Below are positions 9,742 through 31,190 of a stretch of DNA of 32,000 bases, in pieces. Source of the stretch: Alkanindiges illinoisensis DSM 15370 (GTDB lineage Bacteria > Pseudomonadota > Gammaproteobacteria > Pseudomonadales > Moraxellaceae); assembly GCF_000619845.1 (NCBI RefSeq), contig NZ_JHUX01000003.1, positions 1,450,064 through 1,482,063 on the forward strand. Reading direction: 5' to 3'. A model generated the notes under the pieces. That model saw nothing but the letters and a program-made list of their open reading frames with translations. It did not search any database and was not told where the DNA came from. Both the position numbers and the translations under genes were made by a program. Within the stretch, counting starts at the first letter, position 1; each line of letters opens with the position of its first letter.

Positions 9742-9749
9742 ATTTCCTA

Positions 9750-10733: not shown

Positions 10734-10884
10734 TTTCTCCCTATTAAAATTTTAACCAACTAAGACATTGAAATATAATTAATTTTTTATGTATTTTTTT
10801 ACATACGGGTGGAGGCCAGCAGCCTTGGGGATTTTGTTCTAAAGTTTATTCGTTGTTTAACGTTCACTACCGAGGATAAACTTT

Positions 10885-11136: not shown

Positions 11137-11471
11137 AATTCCCGGTCTTTCCAACGCTAACTTCGTATATAGCCGTCTCTGCAAAACTCCCGCCCTGTGC
11201 GGGGGCTTTGGCCAACATCTGTCGTGGCTGTCGCATGGCCTCTATCTGCTTATTTATATTATTAATAATAACCCAAAGGGTTCAAGCCATCTCCCCTGCA
11301 CTGGTTTTCAAACCAGGGCAACAGGCTAGTACGGTCACTGGAATACCCGATTCTCTTTTAGATGCAATGAAGTTTCATGTTCTACATTCAATAGGCCAGT
11401 GCAGTAAAATATTACAGCAGTGCCTGATGCTATGGAACCCAACTCAGTGTCTAGGAGGTCAACATGGTTAA
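11133..11471 (+). CDS. Possible Cys-rich 112-aa ORF translationally coupled on both sides; doubtful
   Basis: Its ATG overlaps the alpA stop as ATGA at 11133-11136, and its 3' end overlaps the next gene's ATG (11464) by 8 nt. It has no recognisable motif and contains a GC hairpin (cccgc cctgt gcggg). Confidence 0.3.
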   Translation: MKFPVFPTLTSYIAVSAKLPPCAGALANICRGCRMASICLFILLIITQRVQAISPALVFKPGQQASTVTGIPDSLLDAMKFHVLHSIGQCSKILQQCLMLWNPTQCLGGQHG

Positions 11472-12546
11472 GGTTAAGGACAAGGCTAAGGACAAAACTA
11501 CCGTATTTGATTCGATTACGCCAAGGCAACTGGCGGTCAGCATGCAGCTGGAAGCCAAGACCCTGATTTATTCAGACGATGACCTGCCACGCTGCGACAA
11601 GGTAAATATCCCGAATGCCGACAACCACGTCCTGTTACTCGAAGTAGCCAATGCTGTTGAGCTATTCTTGAGTACCGACCGGCTGGCCTATGAGACACGC
11701 CCGAATGGGCAGTGTCTTAAGAACCAGTGGTTTAACCGGCTGACTACCCGGCTGGATCACTTGCTTCAGGCACCGCACGAGAAGTATATCTGCTGCCCGG
11801 CCATCCATGCATTTTTCCATGCGGCCGAACAGGCAGGCCTGATTTCATTGACCGCATCAGACCCGGAGACAGTGAACCGCTTTGTCGATTATGTCCGTAA
11901 GGCCATGTCCAGTAAGGCGATTGATGATGCGTACAGAAATCTCATCCGTAGGTCAGAGGATAACTTTGACAGCGCCAACCTGCTGATTGATACGCTGTTT
12001 GCACGCTATGCACGCCTGCTGGTGATCCGTGTAGACCTGCATTACCAGCAGCAGTTTGCCAAGGCGGTTACCCTGAAGCAGGTCAAGGCTGACCTAAAAA
12101 GGATGGCCAATAACGCGCGTTCCAATAAGCGTATCTTTGGCGGACTGGTGGGCCGGATTTTCTGCATTGAGTATGGCGAACTGACCGGTATTCATGCCCA
12201 TTGTATTTTTTTCTTTGATGGTTCATTGCGCCAGAAAGATGCTGCCATTGCCGAGCAGATTGGCCAGTACTGGGCCACCACCATAACGCATGGCAAAGGC
12301 CGCTATTACAACTGTCATCGTTCCAGGAACAAGTACAAGCGCTTGTGCATTGGCCGCATTGAATATGATGATCATGCCAAGCGTGAAACATTGACCACGT
12401 GTGTGGCCTATATCACCAAGGTTGAGCAGTTCCTGGTGTACCGCGAGTTTGAAGGGGATCGTGCATTTATGCGAAGCGAGTTACCGCCTATCCCTGAAAT
12501 AAAACCTGGCAGGCCAAGAGCCGATATGCCGCCCAAGGCAGCCTAG
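11464..12546 (+). CDS. YagK/YfjJ-family protein (inovirus gpII-like), with HUH-like and YxxK-like motifs
   Basis: Strong Shine-Dalgarno (aggaggtcaacATG). LLVIRVDLHY, then GIHAHCIFFFDG (HAH at 12193-12201), then VAYITK (Y at 12409-12411). The order and spacing match the YfjJ/YagK C-terminal domain as I recall it. Confidence 0.8.
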   Translation: MVKVKDKAKDKTTVFDSITPRQLAVSMQLEAKTLIYSDDDLPRCDKVNIPNADNHVLLLEVANAVELFLSTDRLAYETRPNGQCLKNQWFNRLTTRLDHLLQAPHEKYICCPAIHAFFHAAEQAGLISLTASDPETVNRFVDYVRKAMSSKAIDDAYRNLIRRSEDNFDSANLLIDTLFARYARLLVIRVDLHYQQQFAKAVTLKQVKADLKRMANNARSNKRIFGGLVGRIFCIEYGELTGIHAHCIFFFDGSLRQKDAAIAEQIGQYWATTITHGKGRYYNCHRSRNKYKRLCIGRIEYDDHAKRETLTTCVAYITKVEQFLVYREFEGDRAFMRSELPPIPEIKPGRPRADMPPKAA

Positions 12547-12719
12547 GCTCACTGACACCTGGCACCACACCCAACCTTAATCTTAATGGCAAATTGCCGC
12601 TATCTGCCGGGACTGGCCGAACCTTGCCTGAATTTCACTGCCATCAGCTTTATGGACGGTGGCTGGCACAGGTTTAGCCTCCCCAGCCAGGTAGAACAAA
12701 CCAAATACTGGAGTACCTG

Positions 12720-13748
12720 ATGAATATCATCGCCAACCAAAACCAGCTGGACCACCTGTGTGCCGCCCTGATTGATAGCGTCACCCCAAGCCCAGTTATG
12801 CCGCCTGAGGGGGTGCGCTATGTGTGCAATAACCTGCTGGCGATCCACCAGCTTACCCTAAGGATTGCCCGCAGCACTAAATATCCATTTACCTGGCCAC
12901 CGTTAAAGTCACTCCGGCCCGTACAGGACTTCCAGCCCCGGATTAGCCCGCTGGGCAGTGATTTTATGAACCTGGTCAGGCAGCTTAACCCTGATCATTT
13001 GTACCGGCTGTTTCCCCGGCATCAATTCCATCCCCTGATCCATCTGTTTATCGACAAGATGAACCAGTACCAGCTGTGGGGACGCCCGCTGGATCACCTG
13101 ATGAACATGGGTGTCGTTATTAACCGCTGCTTTGATGATATCTCAAAGACCGCTTTTAAAAAGGAATTTGAAAAGCAGTGTGAGCAGTGGCTTGACCCAC
13201 TGCAAACCCGGCACTGTGATTTTACCAACCACACCGAGAAGCTGCTTAAAGCCCAGTCACAATACCTTGTCTCACGGCTGGAGCTGGGTTATGGCAATAG
13301 CCATGACCAGCAGGGTATCCATGCCACCCTGATGCAACAGCACTGGCAGCAGCTGGTGGACCGGTTAACACAGGAGCTATCACCCGATGGGTTGCTTGCC
13401 GCGTTCTGGTTACCGGACTGGATTGCAGGCTATGGCTACCGTTATTCCTTAATGCTCATCACCAGTCCAATGCTTAACCCAGACTCACTGGTGGCCAGCC
13501 GGGATCGTGTCATGACCTACTGGACGAATATAGCCAGACCCTATGGCACCGGTATCATCCAGGGGGCATACCCATTGCCCTATCGCCATGCTGGCTGTGG
13601 ACTGGTTGAGCGTGGCGACAAGCACAAGAAACAGCAGGTAGAGCTGGCCAGGACCTATATGACCAAAGCCCACTACCTGGTCAGGCCAGCCATTGCAGGG
13701 GGCTTTGGTTTTATCAGTGTCCTGGATACCGATACTAATCCCAGATAA
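12720..13748 (+). CDS. Divergent second YagK/YfjJ-like paralog lacking the His-x-His motif
   Basis: YLVSRLELGYG corresponds to LLVIRVDLHY. GYGYRYSLMLI (13428-13460) sits at the place of GIHAHCIFFF. TYMTK (13656-13667) corresponds to AYITK. A ggag Shine-Dalgarno motif precedes the ATG. Confidence 0.55.
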   Translation: MNIIANQNQLDHLCAALIDSVTPSPVMPPEGVRYVCNNLLAIHQLTLRIARSTKYPFTWPPLKSLRPVQDFQPRISPLGSDFMNLVRQLNPDHLYRLFPRHQFHPLIHLFIDKMNQYQLWGRPLDHLMNMGVVINRCFDDISKTAFKKEFEKQCEQWLDPLQTRHCDFTNHTEKLLKAQSQYLVSRLELGYGNSHDQQGIHATLMQQHWQQLVDRLTQELSPDGLLAAFWLPDWIAGYGYRYSLMLITSPMLNPDSLVASRDRVMTYWTNIARPYGTGIIQGAYPLPYRHAGCGLVERGDKHKKQQVELARTYMTKAHYLVRPAIAGGFGFISVLDTDTNPR

Positions 13749-13773
13749 TCCACATTGATGAGATAATGAGACT

Positions 13774-13803
13774 AACAGGTTGCCATGCGCAGCCTGTTTT
13801 TTT
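13774..13803 (+). terminator. Rho-independent terminator ending the alpA-yfjJ block
   Basis: A 10-bp stem pairs aacaggttgc with gcagcctgtt (one G-U pair) around a 5-nt loop, followed by a run of 7 T. Confidence 0.7.
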
Positions 13804-13931
13804 AGGCATCACTGAACTGTGATCAAAAATGCATCTGAAATTATGACAACTTCAAGGAACAGGCACATCCCAAGGAATTCTGGTTTTTTACCCTAGCTTA
13901 TACAGTGATTATTGTACTGGGCAGTATTAAG

Positions 13932-13958
13932 ATAAAAAGCTGGGTATTTTGCCCAGCC
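13932..13958 (-). terminator. Rho-independent terminator, minus strand, after the 95-aa gene
   Basis: On the minus strand the sequence reads gctggg-caaaata-cccagc followed by ttttt. Confidence 0.6.
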
Positions 13959-13981
13959 TTCGTGTGTTAGCGTATCTGTGC

Positions 13982-14269
13982 TTAATCTGGGATCAAGAAG
14001 TTTACTCTATCTGACCTCACGAGACTTTCTACAGCTGCCTCAATATTTAGACGATTTACTATTTTCACCACAATTAAATTCTTTTCAATAAAAACATCTT
14101 GTTCAAGTAATTCATCATTAGCCTCCTGCACCAGTCTCACAGGATCATAAAAACTTAACGTATACATTTTATCGCATACAGTGATCGGAACAGGAAACCA
14201 ACCTTTGGCTTCGACCTCCCATTCATAATCACCAAAATCATCAGGTAGATTAACTGAGTAGCTCATCAT
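13982..14269 (-). CDS. Small acidic cytoplasmic protein (95 aa), candidate immunity or antitoxin partner of the upstream 86-aa ORF
   Basis: An aaggaa Shine-Dalgarno motif lies 6 nt before the ATG, 10 nt after the upstream stop. The protein is acidic with no signal peptide, and the gene is AT-rich. Confidence 0.55.
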   Translation of the reverse strand: MMSYSVNLPDDFGDYEWEVEAKGWFPVPITVCDKMYTLSFYDPVRLVQEANDELLEQDVFIEKNLIVVKIVNRLNIEAAVESLVRSDRVNFLIPD

Positions 14270-14279
14270 AGTCGTTCCT

Positions 14280-14540
14280 TTACTTTATACATTTTATTTT
14301 CCCATATGCCTTAATATATTGCTGAGGAGTAAGATTTGCTCCTGGCTTAGGTGTTATTTCAAAATGCCGTGGATCGGCACCTCGTTGATAAATACGTAAA
14401 GAACTTGAAATAGAACCTTGATCTATTTTATGGGTGTAAATCCTCTCGCAGAAACACTTGCGCGCATTATCAACAAAAGATATTGTTATAGAACAGTCCA
14501 CCACTCTGCTACCGCTCCGTCTTGCGCTATGGCTCATCAT
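14280..14540 (-). CDS. Small basic protein (86 aa), candidate orphan toxin C-terminal fragment
   Basis: The ORF opens only 4 codons after an in-frame stop, and no Shine-Dalgarno motif is visible. It is basic and Cys-containing and is tightly followed by the acidic 95-aa ORF. Confidence 0.45.
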   Translation of the reverse strand: MMSHSARRSGSRVVDCSITISFVDNARKCFCERIYTHKIDQGSISSSLRIYQRGADPRHFEITPKPGANLTPQQYIKAYGKIKCIK

Positions 14541-14697
14541 TAGTACTGTCGATCAGGCTACGAGGCGCATAACTGTCGCATGATGTTAACATACAGGGCA
14601 CAAGCACAACGGAGAGATACTTAGATGCCTATAGGTGGTAGAATTAGAAGAGTATAGCGATGAAGGTAAAAAGCCAGACAAATGTCCAGCCTTCTCA

Positions 14698-15159
14698 TTA
14701 TTTAAGACTGTTGATAATTTTATCAGCCTCTTGCGCATCACTCTCATCATTTTTGTTGTACCAGAAATGCACATAGCTAGGCCATCCATTTTTACTATAC
14801 TTAGTCACGTCTACATAAACTTGTGCACAGTAAGCCATCTCGCACTTCCATTTCTTACCATCAACTTGACTGAAATTAGGAAGTGTAATTTGCTGATAAG
14901 GAGGAGCATTTGATCCTTCTTTATTTGGGAAATTTCCAACAAAGATACCTAAAATAGCTTTTTGGTCGGCGTTTAAGACATCATATAAAATAAAGTCCCC
15001 ACCATTATCTTTCTTTATTATCGTAGTATCATTGGGCAGCTCAATGACTCTGCCTCCCTCTAATTTATAAATACTTGTCATTGCCGATGGCTGAGCATAA
15101 GTCATGCAACCAGCCATGCTCATGCTCATGACGCTCCAAGCCAAATATCTTGAGATCAT
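14698..15159 (-). CDS. Lipoprotein (about 153 aa), candidate immunity protein for the upstream metallopeptidase-like ORF
   Basis: The preferred start is ATG at 15159 (MISRYLAWSVMSMSMAGC, a lipobox-like MAGC). A gagagga Shine-Dalgarno motif is present. The ATG lies 1 nt after the upstream TAA. Confidence 0.7.
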   Translation of the reverse strand: MISRYLAWSVMSMSMAGCMTYAQPSAMTSIYKLEGGRVIELPNDTTIIKKDNGGDFILYDVLNADQKAILGIFVGNFPNKEGSNAPPYQQITLPNFSQVDGKKWKCEMAYCAQVYVDVTKYSKNGWPSYVHFWYNKNDESDAQEADKIINSLK

Positions 15160-15160
15160 T

Positions 15161-15625
15161 TTAGAATCCTCTCGCAAGAACAAGACTACTCATCAATTGG
15201 CTGTTCCAATCCAGATTTAATGAACCATATTGAATAGCGTTATTACTTGTTTCCGGGAATAATGGCTGGAAGTTCATAAATGAAGTTGTTCCTGATTCCA
15301 TAATTTGATAAATGTTCCGGAAATCTACCGCTCCACCTGCACTTGAAGCCATAATATTTCCCTCCCAACCCTGTAAAGGTACAGATGGGTTCGTAAAGCG
15401 ATCATACTTCTCTTCATTAATACCCATCATATGCCCCGCCTCATGTGCAGCAACACTGCTGCTACTTCCTGAAAACCATGTTCCTTGGTTATAAGGTGAC
15501 GTATTCAAAATATTTGATCTATCAGATTGTGTCATAGGCCCGTATGGCACATTAACATTGTTCATATTGCCATTGGATACAGAAGCATGTACTTGATAGC
15601 TTCCAAAAGAGGGATACATTACCAA
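15161..15625 (-). CDS. Zincin-like metallopeptidase domain protein (HExxH), probably an N-terminally truncated toxin domain
   Basis: AAHEAGHMMG is encoded at 15431-15445 on the plus-strand complement. Only a TTG (15625) or an ATG (15619) start is available, without a Shine-Dalgarno motif. The frame stays open upstream only to 15664, where the composition switches. Confidence 0.6.
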   Translation of the reverse strand: MVMYPSFGSYQVHASVSNGNMNNVNVPYGPMTQSDRSNILNTSPYNQGTWFSGSSSSVAAHEAGHMMGINEEKYDRFTNPSVPLQGWEGNIMASSAGGAVDFRNIYQIMESGTTSFMNFQPLFPETSNNAIQYGSLNLDWNSQLMSSLVLARGF

Positions 15626-15663
15626 TGCACTGGTAAAATCACCCTGAAAAGCAGCTGGACATT

Positions 15664-15692
15664 TTTATACAAGTTAACGTCAAGTTATTGAA
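15664..15692 (-). promoter_or_regulatory. Possible sigma70 promoter for the minus-strand metallopeptidase/lipoprotein pair
   Basis: The minus strand reads TTCAAT-N17-TATAAA. This is a by-eye match only. Confidence 0.3.
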
Positions 15693-15887
15693 AGAACTTA
15701 CGAATTCGACGCCATTATTGTTCTGGTATTGTGGACTGGTGACCCAAGTCTAGCCATGCGTTTCATCATAACAAAACAGCTGTACCCAGACAAATTCATC
15801 TGTTTTTTACCAGACCCCTGCTAAGCAATTGACGGGGCTTTCATTCGTGATTATGCTTGGCAGGCTGGCCTACATTGCCAGTCGGTT

Positions 15888-16024
15888 TTGACAGACCGTA
15901 CATATAGCGCGTAATTCTTCCGGCTTATGCTGGTGTATTACGTGTGCCTTTCTCGCACCCCTCTGCGGTGGAACGGGAGGGGACGCGTTCGCGCGTGCTG
16001 GTTTCTATATGTCCAGTCTGTCAA
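15888..16024 (+). repeat. 137-bp structured element closed by a 20-bp imperfect inverted repeat, with inner GC-rich hairpins
   Basis: The arms ttgacagaccgtacatatag (15888-15907) and ctatatgtccagtctgtcaa (16005-16024) pair at 18 of 20 positions. Inner hairpins are 15908-15915/15937-15944; cccctc/gagggg at 15958-15963/15977-15982; and acgcg-ttcg-cgcgt at 15983-15996 (UUCG-type tetraloop). TTGACA-N16-cgTAAT lies at 15888-15915. Confidence 0.7.
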
Positions 16025-16032
16025 CCCCTTTC

Positions 16033-16077
16033 GTTCTGCCACCCATCATTTGACAGTGATCTGGCAGAACTTCTAAT
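16033..16077 (+). promoter_or_regulatory. Perfect 9-bp hairpin/operator enclosing a sigma70-like promoter (TTGACA-N16-TCTAAT)
   Basis: gttctgcca (16033-16041) pairs with tggcagaac (16062-16070). TTGACA at 16050-16055 sits in the loop and TCTAAT is at 16072-16077. It points into the plus-strand operon that follows. Confidence 0.45.
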
Positions 16078-16093
16078 CATATAGGATTCAGCC

Positions 16094-16207
16094 ATGACGA
16101 TTATTACCCCTGCCCTTTTATTGCCTGTTCAGGCCTCTGTTGCACTCCCTAAATCTAGGTTTCCAGACACTCCCCTGCTTCCTGTTCAGTATCCAGCGTT
16201 TCCCTAA
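16094..16207 (+). CDS. Possible 37-aa Pro/Leu-rich micro-ORF (doubtful)
   Basis: ATG at 16094 is preceded by agga. The product is MTIITPALLLPVQASVALPKSRFPDTPLLPVQYPAFP. It contains the 9-nt direct repeat cctgttcag at 16124 and 16181, which could be binding sites rather than coding sequence. Confidence 0.2.
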   Translation: MTIITPALLLPVQASVALPKSRFPDTPLLPVQYPAFP

Positions 16208-16356
16208 CAGCCTTAGCCATTTTTAATCCAGTGCACTTGACCTTAGCAGTTCAGGTGGGACGGGTTATGCATATACATGCGCGCTGCTTTATGAATGGCT
16301 ATGCCTGATACCCAAGTAAACCAAGAACGAGATAGACAAGAAATACAGGGGACCCC

Positions 16357-16614
16357 ATGAACCATTTCACCTCCATAGTGCTGCTCTCTGCCATGCTCGG
16401 CCTATCGGCATGCTCCAGTAGCCCCAGGGACCAGTTTGTTCAGGGTTGCCATGCGGATGGCGGCCCCAGCAAGTCGGTCTGCAAGTGTGCCTATGACAAG
16501 CTTGAGCAGCATTACTCAGCTGACTTGATGCAAAAGATGAGTACCGGCCAGATGCAGTTCCCGGAAGACTTCCTAAATGTCATGCAGCGTGCTGCCATGC
16601 AGTGCCAGGCTTAA
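16357..16614 (+). CDS. Small Cys-containing lipoprotein (85 aa)
   Basis: Signal peptide with lipobox: MNHFTSIVLLSAMLGLSAC. The mature part has four further Cys residues. Confidence 0.7.
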   Translation: MNHFTSIVLLSAMLGLSACSSSPRDQFVQGCHADGGPSKSVCKCAYDKLEQHYSADLMQKMSTGQMQFPEDFLNVMQRAAMQCQA

Positions 16615-16632
16615 CCGGGGACAGGATACCGC

Positions 16633-16788
16633 ATGAAAAACCAACTCATTGCAGGCTACATCATCATTGCCCTGATCTGCTCGGTGTACTTCAAGGCCTG
16701 TAGCACTACCTCAAATCGCAGTTATCCCTATAACCTGGGCCGTGGCCTGACCTGGCCTATCAGCGTGCTGATCTTCCATGGCAAGTAA
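16633..16788 (+). CDS. Small membrane protein (51 aa), not in the supplied track
   Basis: Hand translation gives MKNQLIAGYIIIALICSVYFKACSTTSNRSYPYNLGRGLTWPISVLIFHGK. It has hydrophobic ends and is tightly packed between its neighbours (18-nt and 12-nt gaps). Confidence 0.5.
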   Translation: MKNQLIAGYIIIALICSVYFKACSTTSNRSYPYNLGRGLTWPISVLIFHGK

Positions 16789-16800
16789 GGACACTTTGTT

Positions 16801-17811
16801 ATGACCAGCCTTTATCACTACATTCACAATAACCCAGTGACCGCCACCCTAAACCAGGATGATGCAGTCTACATCGCACCCAACATCCCGCATGGCAAGC
16901 TGCATGGCGCACTGTCCTCCTTTATCCCGGCAGGCATTAGTCCCAATGATGTGGTAGTGCTGATTGATGACACCGTATTTGGCAGTGCCAGGGAAGGACT
17001 GGCACTAACCCCAACCCACCTGTACTGCAAGCAGATCATGGATGCACCCAAGCAGTTCCCACTCAACACCATTCAGAGCATTCACTTTGGCAGTGGTTTC
17101 CTAAATGGTGGACTGTATGTCAATGGCCAGTATGTCAGTGGCATGACCAAGCCTTCTGGCCATAGCATGAAACTGTTTGTCCAGCTGGTTACTGGCTTTC
17201 TGGCTGAGCTGGCCAGTATGCCGGATACCAGAAGTACTCCAGCTAGTTCAGGCACTGGACTTGGCAACCATCATCACCCTCAGCAGGGTGGTGGAAACCA
17301 GGCTTATGCTGGACAGGCAGCAGGCCATGATCCATTTGCAACTTCTACGCAAGGGCAGAATGATCCGTTTGGACAGCCTGATCCGTTTGCCCCATCACCG
17401 CCTAAGCAGACCGACCCCTTTAGCAAGGGCTTGCCGCTCATTGACCTGCTGATCTTTTTTAGCCTGTTCAAGAGTGGGCAGTGGAATACCGCCAGTGTGC
17501 GCTATATCCGGCATTGCTTTGCCAACATGCCACCGGATTCCCAGGTACGCCTCGAGCAACGCATGAAGCAATGCCCGTTTAACCTGACCATTACCACCGA
17601 GCAGCTGGCACGCATGCTACCCAGCATCAGCATGGATAGCCGCAAGCTCCTTGTCAAATGGTCATTACAACTCATGCTGATCAATGAGTTTACAGAAGAT
17701 GAGTTTGACCACTACCTGCATATCCTGACCACCACACTGGCGTTAAGTCGCCATGAGGTTAACTGGGTAATTGATAACACCGAGGCCACCTCTGCTGAAG
17801 AGTGGCAGTAG
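16801..17811 (+). CDS. Two-domain protein: N-terminal bacterial PH/GRAM-like module, disordered DPF-repeat linker, C-terminal TerB-like helical module
   Basis: The N-terminus has VVVLIDDTVFGSAREGLALTPTHLY, a pattern common in bacterial PH-like domains. Residues 141-210 are low complexity with four DPF motifs. The C-terminus is helical and TerB/DjlA-N-like. The domain calls are from memory. Confidence 0.7.
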   Translation: MTSLYHYIHNNPVTATLNQDDAVYIAPNIPHGKLHGALSSFIPAGISPNDVVVLIDDTVFGSAREGLALTPTHLYCKQIMDAPKQFPLNTIQSIHFGSGFLNGGLYVNGQYVSGMTKPSGHSMKLFVQLVTGFLAELASMPDTRSTPASSGTGLGNHHHPQQGGGNQAYAGQAAGHDPFATSTQGQNDPFGQPDPFAPSPPKQTDPFSKGLPLIDLLIFFSLFKSGQWNTASVRYIRHCFANMPPDSQVRLEQRMKQCPFNLTITTEQLARMLPSISMDSRKLLVKWSLQLMLINEFTEDEFDHYLHILTTTLALSRHEVNWVIDNTEATSAEEWQ

Positions 17812-17886
17812 CTGTTCGTAACCATCACCACTGATTTTTAACTAACACCACAACCCAACATCACAACCATAAAGGAATGAATAGAC

Positions 17887-18438
17887 ATGAATAAGATCCT
17901 GCAACCCAACCGTCAAACAACCGCCTACCAGTCTGGCCTAATATTACTGTCAAGTCGCCATGTATTGATCCGATCATTTAAGCCACTACATACCCTGTTA
18001 CTGGCTTCCGGCCTGTTGCTGGCTTTATCCGGCACGACGACAGCCATGGCCGCCTGTCCCTCGGCAGCCAGTACGGTGTTTTCCTGTACCACAGCAAAGG
18101 GCAAGCAGGTCGATATCTGTAATGCAGGGAGTAACCTCAACTATTCCTTTGGCAAGCCTAATAAACCGGAACTGACCTTTAGCCTGCCCAAGGCACGTGC
18201 CTATAAATACCTGTGGTCAGGCATGACCACTTCCGAGTGGAATGAAGTGTACTTGCCACGTGGCAATACCACCTATGTGGCCTACCAGGCTAACCACCGT
18301 AACCATGGTGGTGAGGAGTATGGCTTAAATGTGCTGATCAATGGCAAACAGGCCGCCAATATCCGCTGTGCCTCCAACATCACGGAAAACATCAGTGACA
18401 TTAACCTGCGTGAGATTGGTGATGATGAGCGGCCTTAA
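17887..18438 (+). CDS. Exported hypothetical protein (183 aa)
   Basis: aagga Shine-Dalgarno motif. Hydrophobic signal-like segment LLLASGLLLALSGTTTAMA. The mature part contains several Cys. Confidence 0.7.
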   Translation: MNKILQPNRQTTAYQSGLILLSSRHVLIRSFKPLHTLLLASGLLLALSGTTTAMAACPSAASTVFSCTTAKGKQVDICNAGSNLNYSFGKPNKPELTFSLPKARAYKYLWSGMTTSEWNEVYLPRGNTTYVAYQANHRNHGGEEYGLNVLINGKQAANIRCASNITENISDINLREIGDDERP

Positions 18439-18558
18439 GCAATTTGTTCGGACAACTTAATTAGCAGCGTTTTTACACTGTACTGATCTCTCAAACCGCA
18501 AGCTGATTTAAACCACCAGCTGACCTAAAGCATAAATATCAATAGATAAGGATTTACC

Positions 18559-18891
18559 ATGAAACACACAAGTTACAACGCCGCCATACTGATTGCACTA
18601 ACCACCCTACTGGCAACCCATCAGGCGCAGGCCAAAACTGAACACTTTACCTTAACCGGTAAAACCACCTATGGTGAGGAAGGCATCTTCTTTAAGACCA
18701 GTAAAGGAGATGTGGCATTAAACCTGTACACCCTGCCGGAAGGTGTGGTGAACTCACTGCACAAGTACAACCTAAACAAGGGGGCCTGTATCGTGGTGAA
18801 TTCTGATTCAGGCTTTTTACAAGAAGATGGCGGTGGTGGATCTGGCATTCACAGCATCAAAAACTGTAATAAAACGAGCAAGAAGAAATAA
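18559..18891 (+). CDS. Exported small protein (110 aa) with a Gly-rich, Lys-rich tail
   Basis: taagga Shine-Dalgarno motif. Signal peptide MKHTSYNAAILIALTTLLATHQAQA. Confidence 0.7.
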   Translation: MKHTSYNAAILIALTTLLATHQAQAKTEHFTLTGKTTYGEEGIFFKTSKGDVALNLYTLPEGVVNSLHKYNLNKGACIVVNSDSGFLQEDGGGGSGIHSIKNCNKTSKKK

Positions 18892-18973
18892 CTGCATAAA
18901 GAACTAGTATTGAGAGCTTCTAAATGCCATCAAGACTAGCCATTAAATATTTTACATTCCTAGAATTTTAATA

Positions 18974-19012
18974 GGTTTATAGCTATGCTCATTATTACTA
19001 TAGCTATAAACC
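18974..19012. repeat. Perfect 12-13-bp inverted repeat between the exported-protein operon and the KAP NTPase gene (operator or hairpin)
   Basis: ggtttatagcta (18974-18985) pairs with tagctataaacc (19001-19012) across a 15-nt spacer, and no T-run follows. Confidence 0.6.
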
Positions 19013-19048
19013 AAGCCGCATGTTTGAGAATATTTTCAGGGATAGAAA

Positions 19049-20464
19049 ATGACAGTTAATAGACGAGTAAATTTACCAAAAGTAGATTTTAGTAATATAG
19101 AGGTTCCTTTTGAAGGTGATTTATGGAAACGTGAAGCTTTATCAAATCAATTAACTAATTATGTAGGACGCTTAGAGGCAGGGGCAACTTTAGCAATTGA
19201 TGCAGAATGGGGCGCAGGAAAAACTTGGTTTGTTCATCATTGGAAAAAGGTATTAACTCACAGAGGACATCAAGTTATTTATTTGGATGCATTTTCTAAT
19301 GACTATCTTGAAGATCCTTTTATCATCATCGCCACTGAAATTGCGGAAAGATTTGAAAAGGAAAAAGCCGGGCTAGGTGTTAAGCTTAGGGAAAAAGCTG
19401 TTGCAGCCTATCATGCCCTTCTACCTAATTTACCAATGCTTCTATTTCATTTAACGATGAGTCTAATAGGTGCAGGTGCTATTTCTAAAGGTGCAAGTGA
19501 TATTATTAAAGATGTAAAAGATAATAGTGGTGAGGTAGGTGAGAAGTTTGCCGAAGCTATAAATGAGCAAATTAAAGAACATCTTGAGGAACGCGTCAAA
19601 AATCATGAAGCAGAGAAAAGAACTTTAGATAGTTTTAAACATCAACTTCAAGAACTTTCTAAAGAACTTGATAAACCATTGATTTTTATTATTGACGAAC
19701 TAGATCGTTGTAAGCCCGAATTCTCTATTCGCCTTATAGAACGTATAAAACATTTTTTTGATACGCCAAAAATTGTATTTGTCTTAGCAATGCATAAAGC
19801 TCAGTTATGTGAATCCATTAATAGTTACTATGGTTTTCAAAGCAAGAATTATTATTTGGATAAGTTCATTGACTTTACTGTACTATTATCTACAGAAGAG
19901 CAAAAAAAACAAATCTCATATGAAGCTATTACTGAACAATATCTAGTAGAGCTAGGCCTATATCCACCTTCTGACGCCAAGCAATCAGGTCTATTTAGAG
20001 AAGCATGCTGGCTGTGTGCTACTTTTCATCCTTCAGCCCGGCAGATTAAGAAAATATTTAATAAATACTCACTTCTTTTAAGTCCTGACAATGAAACTAA
20101 AAAAAGTATGCTATTTTTAACATTATTTTTGGATGAAATTGGTTTTATCCCAGACAAAGAAGGCGCGACCTTTGAACTTATATATGATAGGCTCCAACCA
20201 CTTTATATAAAGAAATATGGTACTTCTTACCATCCAGGTCCTACAGGCACTAAAGAGTACATTACATCTTTTCAGGAATTTATAAATAATATACTCACTA
20301 CATCATATGGCCAAATGATGTTTCAATATCTAAGAATTAATAAAAAATTTTCAGGGGCAAGCTGGCAGGATATTTATGAGGGTAAAGCCATATCCCCTCC
20401 AATACAAGGTCATACTACTAACTTTGATAATGCTTGGTTTGACTATATTCATCAAGGATTTTAA
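19049..20464 (+). CDS. KAP-family P-loop NTPase
   Basis: Walker A AEWGAGKTWF (GAGKT at 19211-19225). Walker B-like LIFIIDELDRCKPEF. A hydrophobic insertion, LLPNLPMLLFHLTMSLIGAGAI, sits between them, as described for KAP NTPases. The gene is AT-rich. Confidence 0.85.
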   Translation: MTVNRRVNLPKVDFSNIEVPFEGDLWKREALSNQLTNYVGRLEAGATLAIDAEWGAGKTWFVHHWKKVLTHRGHQVIYLDAFSNDYLEDPFIIIATEIAERFEKEKAGLGVKLREKAVAAYHALLPNLPMLLFHLTMSLIGAGAISKGASDIIKDVKDNSGEVGEKFAEAINEQIKEHLEERVKNHEAEKRTLDSFKHQLQELSKELDKPLIFIIDELDRCKPEFSIRLIERIKHFFDTPKIVFVLAMHKAQLCESINSYYGFQSKNYYLDKFIDFTVLLSTEEQKKQISYEAITEQYLVELGLYPPSDAKQSGLFREACWLCATFHPSARQIKKIFNKYSLLLSPDNETKKSMLFLTLFLDEIGFIPDKEGATFELIYDRLQPLYIKKYGTSYHPGPTGTKEYITSFQEFINNILTTSYGQMMFQYLRINKKFSGASWQDIYEGKAISPPIQGHTTNFDNAWFDYIHQGF

Positions 20465-20526
20465 TAAAAGTAAATTGGTACAGAAATTTTATAAAATATT
20501 CTTATCTCTATGTAAGGGGATTATTT

Positions 20527-21246
20527 ATGTGGGTAGCTATCATTACAGGTATCTTTTCCGTTATCACAACACTTATTGCACTTAAGCATCCTAAAAAGAC
20601 TTCAAGGGAGCGCTTAAGAGAAGAGTTAGATCACGCAAAAAATTTTAACCACTATCTTCTTCAAGACCAAAAAAATGAAGAATCTCTTCCCATAGAAGTC
20701 AAACATAAAGCTGCGCAATACTACGCAGAAAATGAATATACTTCATTCTATGAAGTAAAGTATTTTTGGGGTACCTCAAATATAAAAAGGATTATCAGGA
20801 TAAAGCATGCCTATTTCTTTTTATTTGATGTTTTTTATCATAAAGATGGTTCTATTCAACAGATTATATATCGAAGAGACATAGCTCGGCTTTTATTACT
20901 CGGTTTAGCATTAGGGTATCCCTTGTTACTTTTTCTAGCTATAGATGATTTCAATAATTTCAATTTAATTATAGAGAAAATTGATCAATTCAAAACGCAA
21001 TATAAATATGTGGATCTTTTTAATTTCGTCATGTGGCGGTCAATCATGCTTTTTATTGGCTTTGGTTGCCTAGTTGGGTTTATCAATATTTGGGGAATTA
21101 ACACTGAAATTAAAAAATTCTGCCAACTATCCTCTACTATAAAGCTTAAGACCTTTTGGTTAGATAAACAACTTCACTTTAAGAAACGCTATGTGATTAT
21201 TTTAATCACAGTTGGATTAATTTGGGGTAGCTTAAAAACACTATAA
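20527..21246 (+). CDS. Polytopic membrane protein (239 aa, about 4 transmembrane segments), co-oriented partner of the KAP NTPase
   Basis: aagggga Shine-Dalgarno motif. Hydrophobic segments are MWVAIITGIFSVITTLIAL, LLLLGLALGYPLLLFLAI, IMLFIGFGCLVGFINIWG and VIILITVGLIWGSL. Confidence 0.7.
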   Translation: MWVAIITGIFSVITTLIALKHPKKTSRERLREELDHAKNFNHYLLQDQKNEESLPIEVKHKAAQYYAENEYTSFYEVKYFWGTSNIKRIIRIKHAYFFLFDVFYHKDGSIQQIIYRRDIARLLLLGLALGYPLLLFLAIDDFNNFNLIIEKIDQFKTQYKYVDLFNFVMWRSIMLFIGFGCLVGFINIWGINTEIKKFCQLSSTIKLKTFWLDKQLHFKKRYVIILITVGLIWGSLKTL

Positions 21247-21350
21247 CTTTTTAATTCAAAAATAAATGAGATATATAACATTACTGTGCATATACTACGA
21301 TATCTCTTGTCATTATGCTAAATCACTCATTACATCCTAATCCGGTATGA

Positions 21351-21378
21351 AAAAAGCCTGCATTTGCAGGCTTTTTTA
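21351..21378 (+). terminator. Rho-independent terminator closing the KAP/membrane pair
   Basis: gcctgc-attt-gcaggc, flanked by an A-run upstream and a run of 6 T downstream. Confidence 0.8.
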
Positions 21379-21429
21379 TGTCCGTAATATTTGTAGCTAG
21401 ATTTCATTTAACCCGTAAGGAGATTCTCT

Positions 21430-21765
21430 ATGAAAAAACCAGTCTGTCCCCACTGTCACTCTTCCCAGACCCACGCCACCGCATCTATCCCGAAGGCCGT
21501 AGTACTACAGGATGCCTTTTTAGAGATCCGACGCCTATGTGAGCATGTGGGTCAGTATGCCTTGGCAGGTGCTGCCATTGGCCGTAAGATCCGCCTGGTC
21601 TCACCCATGGCCGGAATGACCTCGGGCTTTGTGATCGGTAGCCTAGTTGGCGGCTTGACCTGTACGGTATCTGTACCCTTGATTTGCACAGCCCTCAAAA
21701 CCACGGTACTGCGGTCTTACCAGTGCCGCCATTGTGGCCAGTGCTTTAGGCACTTTGGCATTTAG
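21430..21765 (+). CDS. Small protein with a split CxxC...CxxC zinc ribbon flanking a glycine-zipper hydrophobic core
   Basis: aaggag Shine-Dalgarno motif. CPHC lies at the N-terminus and CRHCGQC at the C-terminus. GFVIGSLVGGLTC lies in the middle. Confidence 0.65.
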   Translation: MKKPVCPHCHSSQTHATASIPKAVVLQDAFLEIRRLCEHVGQYALAGAAIGRKIRLVSPMAGMTSGFVIGSLVGGLTCTVSVPLICTALKTTVLRSYQCRHCGQCFRHFGI

Positions 21766-21988
21766 TAAATTGAACCAACCTGAGTTGGTTTAGATTAGCC
21801 CTATTAGGGTTTTAGCTATCTTACCTTAAATCCATTTAATTAATTCATGTTAGCTAATAACATCACTCAACCTGCTGTCTCATTAAACCCAATCTTCCTT
21901 AAACCCATCCATTGACACTGCATTCACATGACGCGGTGGGAACCCGTTTATCTGTAATTTAACCAAACTCAATGAAGGACTATTTCCT

Positions 21989-23050
21989 ATGGCACATCTA
22001 ATTGACTCAATAGCCTTTACCGGCACTACCCCTTGGCATGGCCTTGGCAACCAGTTGACCCCACGACAACCCATCGAGGTCTGGGCACGCCAGGCAGGCA
22101 TGGACTGGACGATTGAAGCATCCCCAGTGCATTACCTGACCAAGCTCCCCAATTTGGATGGCGCTGATATCACAGCCTCAGGATTTAGCTCAAGCCCGGC
22201 ACCAATAGGCAAGCATCCCAAGTGCGATATCCTGCTGTCCTTTGATGAACAACAGGTACTGTACCGTTCTGACAACCAGGCACCGCTATCGGTGGTGAGT
22301 CAGCGCTATCAGGTGGTACAGCCCCGCGAGATCCTTGAGTTCTACCGGGACTTAACGATAAAGGCTGACTTTGAGCTGGAAACTGCCGGGGTACTTAAAG
22401 GCGGCAAGAAGCTATGGGCACTGGCACGCACCGGGCAATCAGCCAGCATTAAGGGCAAGGATGTGTCTAACGGCTATATCCTCTTGGCAACCGCCTGTGA
22501 TGGCACGATGGCCACTACCGCCCAGTTCACTAGTATCCGGGTGGTGTGTAATAACACCCTTGCCATTGCACTAAGGCAGAGTAAGGCACTAGGCAATTCA
22601 TCTAATTCACTTAACAATCAGGGCATGGTGAAAGTCCCGCACAACACCAAGTTTGATGCGCAAAGCGTCAAGCAGCAACTGGGTATTTCCATCTCAAGTT
22701 GGGATGAATACATCTATCAACTCAACCAGCTTTCCAAACGTAAGGTGAAAAATGCTGAGGTAGACCGGTATCTGTGGCAGGTATTTAATGACAAGACAGC
22801 ACCGATTAGCAGCAGCTTTAACGAACGTGCCATGACCAAGTGCAAGTCATTGTTTGAAGGCCATGGACGCGGTGCCATGCTGGATTCTGCCAAGGGTACT
22901 GCATTTGGACTACTCAACAGTGTCACTGAGTTTGTCGATCATGAGCGCAAGGCTAAAAGTACTGATCACCGGCTGGAGTCGGCATGGTTTGGTAATGGTG
23001 CGGTGATTAAGCAACGGGCACTGGATCTGGCAGGGTTGATGGTGGCTTGA
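21989..23050 (+). CDS. DUF932 domain protein (YfjQ-like island backbone protein)
   Basis: The N-terminus has FTGTTPWHGLGNQL...AGMDW. The central region has FTSIRVVCNNTLAIAL. Both are hallmark DUF932 motifs. Confidence 0.85.
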   Translation: MAHLIDSIAFTGTTPWHGLGNQLTPRQPIEVWARQAGMDWTIEASPVHYLTKLPNLDGADITASGFSSSPAPIGKHPKCDILLSFDEQQVLYRSDNQAPLSVVSQRYQVVQPREILEFYRDLTIKADFELETAGVLKGGKKLWALARTGQSASIKGKDVSNGYILLATACDGTMATTAQFTSIRVVCNNTLAIALRQSKALGNSSNSLNNQGMVKVPHNTKFDAQSVKQQLGISISSWDEYIYQLNQLSKRKVKNAEVDRYLWQVFNDKTAPISSSFNERAMTKCKSLFEGHGRGAMLDSAKGTAFGLLNSVTEFVDHERKAKSTDHRLESAWFGNGAVIKQRALDLAGLMVA

Positions 23051-23055
23051 TAGTT

Positions 23056-23079
23056 TGCCTGGAACTTTTGTTCCAGGCA
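23056..23079 (+). terminator. Hairpin/terminator after the DUF932 gene
   Basis: A perfect 10-bp stem pairs tgcctggaac with gttccaggca around a tttt loop. The T-rich tract starts only about 12 nt downstream. Confidence 0.55.
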
Positions 23080-23609
23080 CCCATTCAATCTTTTATTTTT
23101 TTCAACTTTCGTAAAATCATACATCGAACTACATGTTTTATGCATCAAGCCATTTAGAAAAGCTCATTATGATGATCACGCTCAAGAAGTAAATATAATG
23201 CACAACCTATTGTCAGCGTGGATGTAATGGAATACTTTTACGTCCATTATGGTACTGACGATTTAGAAAAATTGATTTTGGTATGACTTTGTCTAGAACA
23301 AGGATGTGGTTTTAACATGCAACATCAAGAGCTTTACTTTTCAAATAGTATCAATATGCAGCTGTTGCTGATGAAAATGTCGGAGTTTTTTATTAACAAT
23401 CCTCATTATAAGCTGATGGACTATGAGCCAATCACTAGGGGATTAAGGTTTTATTATATTGTGGTGCCATAGCTCACTTAAAAATGCTGATTTGTCACTC
23501 TATTAATGCTCTTACTTTGATCATAGATCCATCAATAAATCAAAAGAGCTTGAGTAAAGCCAGACACTAAGTTTTGCTCACCAAAAAAGATAACTTCAAG
23601 GTCATTGCC

Positions 23610-23975
23610 ATGCCAAAACCAGTCAGGTTAGCGATAAAGCTCATTTGGTTTTCTTTAATCATCCGGGTGTTGCTGAATCTTTTTGGAACAGTAATAGGAA
23701 TATATTTAGTAGGAACTTTCTTAATCACATTCATTATCAGTACACTGATTGCCATTATTCCTTATAAGCTAGGCCATAGGAGCAACGCTGCACGTTATGT
23801 ACTTTTGCTGATTGCGGTTCTTACCGCAATTGGTGCGTTATCGGTCTTTGTGTACCATGTGCCTAATACAATACTAGATCAACTGGATTTTCTGATTACG
23901 ATTCCATTGTATATATATGCATTATACTTTCTGTTCTTTAATAAAGAAGTAGTTCACTGGTTTAGGAGTCAATAG
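23610..23975 (+). CDS. Small polytopic membrane protein (about 121 aa)
   Basis: The track ORF starts at TTG 23574, but ATG at 23610 is preferred. It has three to four hydrophobic helices and is AT-rich. Confidence 0.55.
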   Translation: MPKPVRLAIKLIWFSLIIRVLLNLFGTVIGIYLVGTFLITFIISTLIAIIPYKLGHRSNAARYVLLLIAVLTAIGALSVFVYHVPNTILDQLDFLITIPLYIYALYFLFFNKEVVHWFRSQ

Positions 23976-24252
23976 AATAACTAATCCGAATTACCACACT
24001 CATTGTAGTAATTTTCTTTTTTTCTTATTGACACTTATCCCACTATTAGTTGTGGACTATTTGCCATAGAAAGCTGGCTATAAGCAGGGCACTGCGGAGT
24101 ATTTTGGCTATTCTTATGCCCGACAGTTGGCATCAGTACAAGAATGCATGATTGATCCCAATGTAGCCAATAATGCAGCTTTTTAAACAGGGTACCGTGC
24201 ATTTTTTGAGTAACCCTATGCAGCGCTTATAGCCGCAGTAGGGTTAACACAT

Positions 24253-24675
24253 TTATCCCACAAGCCACACATATTCTTCAGTGCATTGTGGATTTAAGTA
24301 CTTAATGCGATTAGCGTTTTTTTTAAACTTGCCACTGCCACCAGCAAAATCCACTTGCTGGCCGATTCGATAATTGCGGTTCATATACGTAAGAATCTGA
24401 TTCACCTCATCCCATTTAACCAAGTTTTCAGGAAAAATCAGAAGCGAACCATCAGCATATAAACAGCCATTTTTTAGGGTCAATATTCCTGTTAAACGTG
24501 CAGAGGCAGAAATGCCATTGTACTCATAAACAGGAATATTCACTGTTGCCTTGCTCGCTTGCTGCTGAGATTGTGGCTGCTGAGATTGTTGGGGTTGTGA
24601 TGGCTGCTGACATGCAGTCAGCAGCGTTAGTACAGCACATGTGCCACAGTACTTAAGTTGATTATTGATAAACAA
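24253..24675 (-). CDS. Lipoprotein with a Gln/Pro-rich linker (140 aa), TTG start coupled to the upstream protease remnant
   Basis: Lipobox LTLLTAC. An aggag Shine-Dalgarno motif lies 6 nt upstream of TTG at 24675, and an in-frame stop 3 codons upstream excludes a longer ORF. Confidence 0.7.
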   Translation of the reverse strand: MFINNQLKYCGTCAVLTLLTACQQPSQPQQSQQPQSQQQASKATVNIPVYEYNGISASARLTGILTLKNGCLYADGSLLIFPENLVKWDEVNQILTYMNRNYRIGQQVDFAGGSGKFKKNANRIKYLNPQCTEEYVWLVG

Positions 24676-29021: not shown

Positions 29022-31190
29022 TTAACCGTGCTGTAACTGGTGTAATTTGGCATAGGCGCCACCGGGTGTTTGCAACAGCTGCTGATGCGTGCCGCTTTCA
29101 ACAATCTCGCCCTGCTCCATCACAATGATCCGGTTGGCATTACGCACGGCGGATAAGCGATGGGCAATGATCAGCACCGTGCGGCCCTGGCAAATGGTTT
29201 GCATGTTGGCCTGGATAATGTGCTCACTTTCATAATCCAAGGCACTGGTGGCTTCATCAAAGATCAGGATGCGTGGATTGGTAATTAACGCGCGGGCAAT
29301 CGCAATGCGCTGGCGCTGGCCACCCGATAAGGTTGAACCATGCTCACCCACCATGGTGTTATAGCCTTCTGGCAACTCCACAATAAATTCATGCGCACCA
29401 GCCAGCTTGGCCACTTCAATCACTCGCTCTAAAGAGGCACTGGGGTCAGACAGGGCAATATTTTCCCGGATGGTCCGGTTAAACAGCATGTTTTCCTGTA
29501 GTACCACGCCAATTTGCCGCCGCAGCGAGCTGGTATCCATAATGGATAAGTCCATACCGTCAATCAGGATGCGGCCACGTTCTGGCACATACAGGCGCTG
29601 GATGAGTTTGGTTAAGGTGCTTTTACCGGAACCCGAACGCCCGACAATCCCAATCACCTCACCTGGCTGGATACTCATATCAATGTCTTTAAGGATTTCA
29701 CGGCCATCAGGACGATAACGGAAGAACAAATGATCAAGCGTGATGCTGCCTGCAATCTTAGGCAGACTGCCCTTGCTGTCGGACAGCTCGGTTTTGGTAT
29801 TGAGGATATCGCCCAAGCGCTGAATGGAAATCCCTACCTGCTGGAAGTCAGTCCACATTTGTGCCAGACGCATGACGGGCTGTGACACCTGTCCGGCCAG
29901 CATGTTAAAGGCAATCAACTGGCCGACACTGAGCTTGCCTTCAATCACCAGTTTGGCCCCAAAATACATGATGGCCACGGTGACTATTTTATTAATGAGG
30001 GTCACGCCACTATTGGCAAAGGTACTGATGGTAGTGGTTTTAAAGCTGGATTTGACATAGCCTGCCAGCTGGTTATCCCATTTACGTACCCAGTGGTTTT
30101 CAGTAGCCAGTGATTTTACCGTATCCACCCCACTCACCGTTTCAACCAAAAAGGCCTGATTTTCCGCACCACGGGCAAATTTTTCATTCAAGCGCTGACG
30201 CAGGATTGGGGTAAAAATCACTGACAGCAGCAAATAACAGGGAATTGAAGCAATCACAATTAACGTGAGCCAGCCACTGTAATAAACCATCACGGCAATA
30301 AACACAAAGGAAAACACCAAATCCAGAATCAGGGTCAAGGCATTGCCGGTGAGAAAGGAGCGAATGTTTTCCAGCTCACGAATACGCGCGACCGAGTCGC
30401 CAACCCGGCGTGCCTGAAAGTAATTCAGTGGCAAGGCCAGCAAATGGCGAAATACCTTGGCTCCCAGTTCCACATCAATGCGGCTGGTGGTATGGGCGAA
30501 CACATAACTGCGTAACGTCGAGAGCAATACATCAAAGATAATGATCACCGTTAAGCCAATGGCAATCACATCCAGGGTGGTCAATGCCCGATGCACCAGT
30601 ACCTTGTCCATGACCACCTGAAAGAACAGTGGTGTGATCAAGGCAAATAGTTGCAGCACAAAGCTGACCAGCAGTACTTCAATCAGTAGCTTGCGATACT
30701 TAATCACTGAAGGAATAAACCAGGACAAGTCAAACTTGCGTAAGGCTTGAGCCAGGCTATCCTTGGTGGTGACTAAGATCAGTTTGCCCTGCCATAGCTC
30801 GCCAAACTGTACAGGCGTTAACAACTGGGGCCGTCCCATACGCGGAGACTGGACCAGATACTGGTCATTTTCAATTCGCGCCAGAATAAAGAATTCTGGT
30901 TCTCCATCAGGATTGGTGGTTTCTACAATGGCAGGTAATGGAATCTTGTCCAGCCGCTCAAGTGTCGTACTTACCGCCTTGGCTTTTAAATTTAAGCGCT
31001 TGGCCGCCAGCAATAACTCGGTGCTGTTAAATTGGGTATTATCCAGACCCGCTTCATGGATCACCTGCTCTGGCTCAACTGCCATGTGGTGAAAACGCGC
31101 CATCATGATCAGGCAAGCAAGGCCAGTGTCAATCCGGAGCATGGTATGAGCGGTATCGGGGGATTCTTGATTTTGGGCAACAAAAGACAT
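29022..31190 (-). CDS. Type I secretion ABC transporter (permease/ATPase) with an N-terminal C39-peptidase-like domain (HlyB-like)
   Basis: The N-terminus has GLACLIMMARFHH..., followed by six transmembrane segments. Motifs are Walker A GRSGSGKST, signature LSGGQRQR and Walker B ILIFDEATSALD. Confidence 0.9.
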   Translation of the reverse strand: MSFVAQNQESPDTAHTMLRIDTGLACLIMMARFHHMAVEPEQVIHEAGLDNTQFNSTELLLAAKRLNLKAKAVSTTLERLDKIPLPAIVETTNPDGEPEFFILARIENDQYLVQSPRMGRPQLLTPVQFGELWQGKLILVTTKDSLAQALRKFDLSWFIPSVIKYRKLLIEVLLVSFVLQLFALITPLFFQVVMDKVLVHRALTTLDVIAIGLTVIIIFDVLLSTLRSYVFAHTTSRIDVELGAKVFRHLLALPLNYFQARRVGDSVARIRELENIRSFLTGNALTLILDLVFSFVFIAVMVYYSGWLTLIVIASIPCYLLLSVIFTPILRQRLNEKFARGAENQAFLVETVSGVDTVKSLATENHWVRKWDNQLAGYVKSSFKTTTISTFANSGVTLINKIVTVAIMYFGAKLVIEGKLSVGQLIAFNMLAGQVSQPVMRLAQMWTDFQQVGISIQRLGDILNTKTELSDSKGSLPKIAGSITLDHLFFRYRPDGREILKDIDMSIQPGEVIGIVGRSGSGKSTLTKLIQRLYVPERGRILIDGMDLSIMDTSSLRRQIGVVLQENMLFNRTIRENIALSDPSASLERVIEVAKLAGAHEFIVELPEGYNTMVGEHGSTLSGGQRQRIAIARALITNPRILIFDEATSALDYESEHIIQANMQTICQGRTVLIIAHRLSAVRNANRIIVMEQGEIVESGTHQQLLQTPGGAYAKLHQLQHG

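Follow-up and report, generated by a model that had tools for sequence, protein, structure and literature searches.

The subject of this report is an AT-rich block of about 2.5 kb (18892-21378) in a 32,000-nucleotide (nt) stretch of the genome of Alkanindiges illinoisensis DSM 15370, referred to below as the window. The block carries two open reading frames (ORFs) of the same orientation, separated by a gap of 62 nt: gene 1, encoding a P-loop NTPase of the KAP family, and gene 2, encoding a predicted membrane protein (Table 1). Its G+C content (GC) is 32.4%, compared with 49.5% in the upstream flank (16801-18891) and 49.8% in the downstream flank (21379-23050), and its borders at ~18.9 kb and 21.4 kb are sharp, with the GC fraction rising from 0.34 to 0.51 at the latter. 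A first-pass annotation, made by a model from the letters and their ORFs, had described such a block with two co-oriented genes, and its hand count of 19 G+C in 60 nt at 19261-19320 proved exact on recounting. The GC at third codon positions (GC3) is 0.21 in gene 1 and 0.30 in gene 2, against 0.53-0.60 in five flanking genes; the shared low GC3 and GC thus give the two genes a common foreign signature. We consider it probable that the insert is cargo from a low-GC Moraxellaceae prophage or island, consisting of a stand-alone defence NTPase of the PADLOC family PDC-S20 and an orphan passenger gene.

Gene 1 genuinely encodes a P-loop NTPase of the KAP family, as the first-pass annotation had proposed from its Walker motifs. 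The protein matches the Pfam family KAP_NTPase (PF07693) over residues 30-288 with 111.8 bits (E 5e-32, gathering cutoff 20). It contains a Walker A motif (W54-G-A-G-K58-T59) and a Walker B motif (F-I-I-D216-E217-L-D219-R-C), in which G55, G57, K58, D216, E217 and D219 are invariant across an alignment of 29 family members. The NTPase core is conserved over residues 30-290. The C-terminal region after it is helical, and its last ~105 residues are hypervariable, with mean identity to gene 1 falling from 44-68% for residues 1-290 to 30% for residues 291-365 and 13-18% for residues 366-471. In NTPases of the KAP type (PF07693), transmembrane (TM) helices, typically 2 or 4, are expected between the two Walker motifs as an insertion in the P-loop domain. 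An insertion, annotated earlier as hydrophobic, exists there in gene 1 (residues ~125-160), but it holds only one hydrophobic segment (128-146), whose Kyte-Doolittle score of 1.59 falls just short of the threshold of 1.6. The helix that follows is amphipathic, and AlphaFold2 assigned a predicted local distance difference test score (pLDDT) below 50 to residues 126-157. With a single borderline helix and poor modelling, a hairpin that spans the membrane is not demonstrated. No significant match to gene 1 came from a sequence-profile search of the PDB.

The family of gene 1 is already catalogued, and the word "undescribed" in the first-pass annotation has to be given up. The best PADLOC match was the PDC-S20 model PDLC04959 (E 5.1e-76, 255 bits, gene 1 residues 18-361), and three more PDC-S20 models (PDLC04956, PDLC04958 and PDLC04957) matched with E values of 3e-32 to 5.7e-50. 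Gene 1 also matched phrog_8614, a PHROG of unknown function, with an E value of 8e-71. It is a new, diverged member of this family, belonging to Pfam KAP_NTPase and PADLOC PDC-S20 and falling outside QatA, PifA and RdrA. PDCs are the Phage Defense Candidates of PADLOC, which were predicted by guilt-by-embedding (PMC12881386). Gene 1 resembles PDC-S20 in being a single-gene KAP NTPase of the ~450-465-aa type with relatives in variable regions of prophages and islands. It differs in that its C-terminal ~110 residues, hypervariable in the family, do not align to the model; moreover, the orphan membrane gene that follows lies outside the definition of PDC-S20.

More than 1,200 relatives of gene 1 were found at E <=1e-10, mostly in Acinetobacter and in other Moraxellaceae. 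To describe their settings we used a synteny set of 174 loci, 169 of which contain a gene 1 relative, including the locus of the window itself (L009). The relatives closest to gene 1 (49-56% identity) are full length (463-481 aa) and solo. One solo relative (L001) stands directly after a YfjJ-like gene and before AlpA, in the same type of island as here, another (L003) adjoins terminase genes, and two (L004, L006) adjoin lysis and tail genes. Further relatives lie beside the gpD/gpU tail genes of P2-like phages (L096/L175), on 105 IMG/VR viral contigs and on 74 plasmid records. Neighbouring genes are highly variable between loci, and at the family level PDC-S20 behaves as a single-gene family, with solo closest relatives and variable neighbours in the 157 full-length loci. 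The variable regions of P2-like phages are known defence hotspots (PMC9122126). Together, these settings support the view that the gene 1 family is hotspot cargo of prophages and islands across Moraxellaceae. The suggestion of a defence candidate in horizontally acquired cargo has thus held up, and it was reasonable to flag the locus as defence-related. In ~47 of the 80 viral-contig loci (IMG/VR, L095-L174; counted from the table) a contig end lies less than 4 kb from the KAP gene, which fits a position near prophage ends.

Gene 2 is very probably a real gene, judging from its reading frame and start region, and in all likelihood it encodes a genuine membrane protein of about four TM segments. 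Its 239 sense codons stay open in DNA of 31.5% GC, in which a random stop is expected at ~7.6% of codons; the probability of such a frame by chance is ~6e-9 (base-composition calculation). The Shine-Dalgarno (SD)-like AAGGGG sits 7 nt before the ATG, and the ORF was also called by the gene caller in an independent assembly (L009). Three strong hydrophobic segments (window starts 1, 122 and 173; Kyte-Doolittle 2.16-2.24) show membrane-protein-like spacing and basic flanking residues, and a fourth, weaker segment is C-terminal (221-239, Kyte-Doolittle 1.47). From the positive-inside rule we infer an N-out topology with four TM segments and a cytoplasmic helical region of ~95 aa after the first of them.

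This membrane protein has no relatives among ~15 billion proteins and raw metagenome, viral, phage and plasmid DNA, the overall scope of our searches. Only the self-match was recovered from 5.8 billion clusters in a word-indexed search and from 1.84 billion representatives in an exhaustive phmmer search, and nothing beyond the protein itself appeared in phage records (tblastn) or in metagenome and viral contigs (pattern search and tblastn). Pfam, NCBIfam, PADLOC and PHROGs contained no family match, in agreement with the earlier description of a 239-aa, roughly four-helix protein without a recognised motif; at E <=10, Pfam returned only noise on the N-terminal TM helix (DUF2897, 0.18; TMEM175, 0.2). 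The single-sequence AlphaFold2 model was poor (pLDDT 50.5, predicted template-modelling score (pTM) 0.26), and the Foldseek comparison of this model with the PDB was uninformative, giving no fold match and a meaningless best E value of 2.3. Gene 2 appears to be a lineage-specific orphan that came with gene 1, and no conserved partner of the NTPase family.

Table 1 Coordinates of the features in the insert and of the family A3 membrane genes in related loci (window positions unless a locus is given)
Feature	Position	Strand	Details
Sigma-70-like promoter candidate	18937..18966	+	TAGCCA, 18-nt spacer, TAGAAT; 9/12 consensus matches
Perfect 13-bp inverted repeat	18974..19012		Arms GGTTTATAGCTAT (18974-18986) and ATAGCTATAAACC (19000-19012), 13-nt spacer
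Gene 1, KAP-family P-loop NTPase	19049..20464	+	471 aa; SD-like AGGGA at 19038-19042
Gene 2, predicted all-helical membrane protein	20527..21246	+	239 aa; 3-4 TM segments; SD-like AAGGGG at 20514-20519
Intrinsic terminator, potentially bidirectional	21350..21377		AAAAAAGCCTGCA-TT-TGCAGGCTTTTTT; GC-rich stem, A-run and T-run flanks
Family A3 members	L092:4001-4744, L093:4001-4744, L007:3195-3977, L014:6597-7292, L095:1251-2042		

The first-pass annotation had read the pair as a self-contained cassette of an NTPase sensor and a membrane effector. In its strict form this would be an obligate two-gene abortive-infection module, in which the KAP NTPase, as the infection sensor, switches on a membrane-damaging 4-TM protein. 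The layout of the insert agrees with such a module: the genes are co-oriented, share their foreign composition, have no terminator-like site between them, and lie between one promoter-like site with an inverted repeat and one terminator. In addition, four related KAP genes have a membrane protein of the same layout 11-225 nt away. Comparison across loci argues against it. A gene 2 homologue was present in 0 of the 168 other loci with a gene 1 relative, where the best non-self BLASTP match had an E value of 0.041 over 47 aa. As far as can be tested, homologues of the two genes are not syntenic elsewhere; without any homologue of gene 2, their co-occurrence cannot be shown. The nearest relatives of gene 1 equal it in length and stand alone. 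Among co-oriented neighbours within 150 nt in the 157 full-length loci, 15 of 111 (13.5%) had at least two TM segments by a crude Kyte-Doolittle predictor, compared with 139 of 1390 ORFs of at least 150 aa (10%) in the same loci, so that membrane-protein neighbours show no real enrichment next to the gene 1 family. Moreover, abortive infection was reported not to be the mode of action of the Enterococcus KAP protein that has been tested (PMC13552941). A putative gene 1-gene 2 defence system is thus without comparative support, and we regard the obligate module as unlikely.

The membrane proteins beside related KAP genes deserve a closer description. At four loci of a sub-clade of 43-48% identity, a small membrane protein with a gene 2-like layout adjoins the KAP gene. 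Such proteins begin with a TM helix and a basic patch, continue with ~100 aa of helical sequence and have two TM helices in their C-terminal part. The membrane gene lies upstream in L007 and L095 (14-nt gap) and downstream in L014 (225 nt) and L096 (11 nt). Those of L007, L095 and L014 form family A3, an Acinetobacter-only family of 31 clusters with proteins of 225-263 aa and no Pfam domain. A3 genes are usually preceded, with a gap of 1-3 nt, by a gene for a domain-less protein of 328-352 aa in accessory regions of P2-like prophages, and the two could be an uncharacterised two-gene prophage module. At L014:3888-7292 the KAP gene stands between the gene for a 334-aa protein and the A3 gene, two genes that are immediate neighbours in L092 and L093, as if it had been inserted into this pair or the pair had been expanded. 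No KAP gene was called near A3 in L090-L094, some of which end at a contig edge. The membrane protein of L096 (5359-6009) belongs to family B (also L176-L185), which comprises 3-TM proteins of 195-216 aa. In P2-like Acinetobacter prophages (L176, L177, L179), family B holds a fixed position beside the convergent gpD/gpU/tape-measure genes, with changing cargo on its upstream side: a KAP gene with a BRCT protein, a Dam-like methyltransferase or unknown genes. None of the family B loci L176-L185 contained a gene 1 match. Family B may be of use as an anchor for mining the P2-like hotspot.

We rejected A3 and B as dedicated KAP partners because they are mostly found with no KAP gene, next to gpD/gpU genes of the P2-like type. 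Gene 2 is also not a diverged member of either family. For A3, the hhalign probability was 0.2% and the hidden Markov model (HMM) score -3.1 bits (E 0.22), with 2271 of 3000 layout-preserving shuffles scoring at least as high. For B, the hhalign probability was 1.5% and the HMM score -0.7 bits, and 1444-1537 of 3000 such shuffles did at least as well. A collinear hhalign alignment of gene 2 with B at 30% identity is persuasive by eye, but was rejected because it is no better than shuffles. Since the P2-like region is a defence hotspot (PMC9122126), the adjacency of KAP and membrane genes is explained without the need for a coupling between them.

Experimental work on other KAP proteins allows a single-gene function to be considered for gene 1. 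KAP NTPases have been shown to give single-protein anti-phage defence, and four KAP proteins put to the test protected against phage; defence by the Enterococcus protein EF_KAP requires Walker B and an uncharacterised C-terminal region (PMC13552941). In both gene 1 and EF_KAP, the KAP P-loop domain precedes a C-terminal region without known domain, Walker A and Walker B are separated by a helical insertion, and the gene stands alone on mobile DNA. However, EF_KAP has an N-terminal TM helix and a C-terminal region of 322 aa, whereas gene 1 lacks such a helix and its C-terminal region comprises ~180 aa; EF_KAP and its relatives are hosted by Firmicutes rather than Moraxellaceae, and the likeness to gene 1 is drawn from architecture and setting. 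Tmn, a validated KAP-type anti-phage NTPase (10.1101/2022.08.21.504612), is likewise a P-loop NTPase encoded by a single gene, and an insertion follows its Walker A motif; this insertion, however, contains two clear TM helices in place of the one borderline helix of gene 1, and no Tmn model was among the PADLOC matches of gene 1 at E <=0.1.

Other known systems share only parts with gene 1. QatA shows partial P-loop similarity (PADLOC QatA E 1.1e-16; NCBIfam NF041923 47.8 bits), but the NF041923 cutoff is 600 bits, QatA is ~600-650 aa long, and no PADLOC match to QatB, QatC or QatD was found in the neighbours of gene 1. Structurally, the gene 1 model came closest to RdrA of RADAR (8fnu_A, Foldseek E 3.1e-4), but with a TM-score of 0.39 normalised to the query and 0.25 normalised to the target, and 14% identity. 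RdrA is also longer (~800 aa) and partners the RdrB deaminase, for which none of the six ORFs scanned here gave a PADLOC match. Because ORC/Cdc6 and FtsH ATPases score alike, this resemblance reflects a generic ATPase fold.

Our preferred account, a stand-alone defence NTPase with a passenger, can be put as follows. The 2.5-kb block was acquired horizontally, probably from a low-GC Moraxellaceae prophage or island, by the tRNA-Ser-associated AlpA/YfjJ/DUF932 island of Alkanindiges illinoisensis. Gene 1 alone would act as a nucleoside triphosphate (NTP)-dependent switch in defence against phages or other mobile genetic elements, a model based on the analogy with the Enterococcus KAP protein and its need for Walker B and the C-terminal region (PMC13552941). 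The N-terminal P-loop domain would bind and hydrolyse NTP through K58 and D216/E217, and the diversifying C-terminal helical region may carry specificity or effector function. Gene 2 would have arrived together with gene 1, is probably co-transcribed with it and may be dispensable.

Several points weigh against this account. PDC-S20 was neither mentioned nor experimentally tested in the literature that we searched, so that a defence role of gene 1 is deduced from its associations and from KAP proteins that are only distantly related. Gene 1 aligns only to positions 13-342 of the 464-position PDC-S20 model, and its C-terminal region is therefore unlike that of the model. The tight linkage of the two genes and their shared promoter-like site, terminator and composition are equally expected of a true operon partner, and orphan status cannot disprove a coupling in a single lineage. 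Furthermore, three sequence-unrelated small membrane proteins of the same layout (gene 2, A3 and B) adjoin KAP genes of one sub-clade, a recurrence that could reflect function rather than hotspot neighbourhood. In that case gene 2 would be a fast-evolving, lineage-specific partner (anchor or effector), with A3 (L007, L095, L014) and B (L096) as its analogues. The PDC-S20 sub-clade would then be modular, combining the NTPase with an interchangeable 3-4-TM protein, and the second part would have diverged beyond recognition. This seems quite improbable to us.

A different view is that gene 1 primarily serves the mobile element that carries it, through maintenance, exclusion of competitors or regulation of a membrane complex, as has been argued for PifA, the T7 exclusion protein of the F plasmid. 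Phage restriction is probably not the primary function of PifA (PMC13552941), and gene 1 shares with it the KAP P-loop domain (PADLOC PifA E 2.5e-12, gene 1 residues 43-284). This match is partial, covering only positions 38-257 of the 720-position profile, and architecture and length are unlike. Relatives on plasmids would suit such a role, as would relatives at apparently chromosomal, non-prophage sites with conserved neighbours in several Acinetobacter species (12- and 7-member clusters); moreover, PDC status is by itself an association only (PMC12881386). Against this stand the strongest matches of gene 1, which are to a PADLOC defence-candidate family, the location of relatives in classic prophage variable regions, the hypervariable C-terminal tail, which is typical of conflict genes, and the phage protection given by four tested KAP proteins. 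On balance we find the element-serving role rather doubtful. Finally, gene 2, which occupies the 3' region of the insert, might be no functional gene but an ORF that is spurious or in decay. The lack of homologues in every database searched and the low-confidence AlphaFold2 model without a fold match would agree with this, but the length of the open frame, the SD-like site, the call in an independent assembly and the three strong hydrophobic segments make it highly improbable.

If gene 1 is indeed a stand-alone defence NTPase, a predicted single-gene defence family gains a further diverged member, with <=56% identity to any of the others. The occurrence of PDC-S20 in the tail-adjacent variable regions of P2-like prophages and in YfjJ/AlpA islands across Moraxellaceae strengthens the case for experimental testing, and the hypervariable C-terminal ~105 residues of gene 1 are a natural target for specificity swaps. 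If, on the other hand, gene 2 were required, the locus would be an example of defence NTPases recruiting fast-evolving membrane partners that are invisible to homology searches.

The two genes are probably co-transcribed, because a simple terminator scan found no terminator-like site in the gap between them and there is a single terminator after gene 2. The latter, which the first-pass annotation had noticed as a strong terminator, folds with -17.4 kcal/mol and coincides with the 3' edge of the AT-rich block; it is absent from the output of the same simple scan. Sigma-70-like sites are no commoner in this region than in shuffled sequences, and the promoter candidate is a guess from position only. 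The inverted repeat, also noticed earlier as a perfect repeat of 12-13 bp, has arms of 13 nt that are 100% complementary, folds as RNA with -17.1 kcal/mol and is located between the promoter-like -10 element and the start of gene 1. Within the window, the 8-bp palindrome ATAGCTAT is confined to the two arms, once in each. The window has 4 sites with a perfect 13-bp inverted repeat whose spacer is <=30 nt, compared with a mean of 0.027 per Markov-simulated window, and any such repeat occurred in 7 of 300 simulations. An operator and a hairpin in the 5' untranslated region are both plausible functions. The repeat is not conserved upstream of the 8 related KAP genes that we examined.

The island that received the insert (9616-24500) adjoins tRNA-Ser(tga) and includes AlpA (10885-11136), a YfjJ-like gene (11464-12546) and DUF932 (21989-23050). 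The first-pass annotation had placed the insert in a cargo slot between YfjJ and DUF932. It does lie within the island, but the YfjJ-like gene is 6.5 kb upstream and not adjacent. The far boundary of the island is undefined because it contains no integrase ORF and no att-like direct repeat (>=14 nt) of the tRNA-Ser 3' end, which we sought as a delimiter; the island may be a degraded or integrase-less element. The comparison drawn earlier with E. coli islands carrying rnlAB gained no support, as megablast of the insert DNA against 5,426 E. coli genomes and a plasmid collection gave no match and the host is no enterobacterium. Both proteins have 100% identical NCBI entries from Alkanindiges illinoisensis (Moraxellaceae). 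The 80 best loci from a scan of GTDB species-representative genomes included none identical to gene 1; the representative of this species may be another assembly without the insert, or its record may have been masked.

Just upstream of the insert lie two small genes (17887-18438 and 18559-18891) whose products have N-terminal hydrophobic, signal-like segments and no family matches. They are preceded by a gene for a 336-aa protein (16801-17811, +) whose N-terminal domain (residues 16-98) matches the PADLOC BnzA (Bunzi) model with an E value of 6.9e-15; this domain is followed by a low-complexity linker rich in Q, P and G and by a C-terminal domain without annotation. Two more perfect inverted repeats with arms of at least 13 bp occur in the window, at 9710-9742 and 31218-31254. 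One of them is a terminator directly after tRNA-Ser, and the other lies between an ABC transporter/C39 peptidase gene (29022-31190, -) and the next gene.

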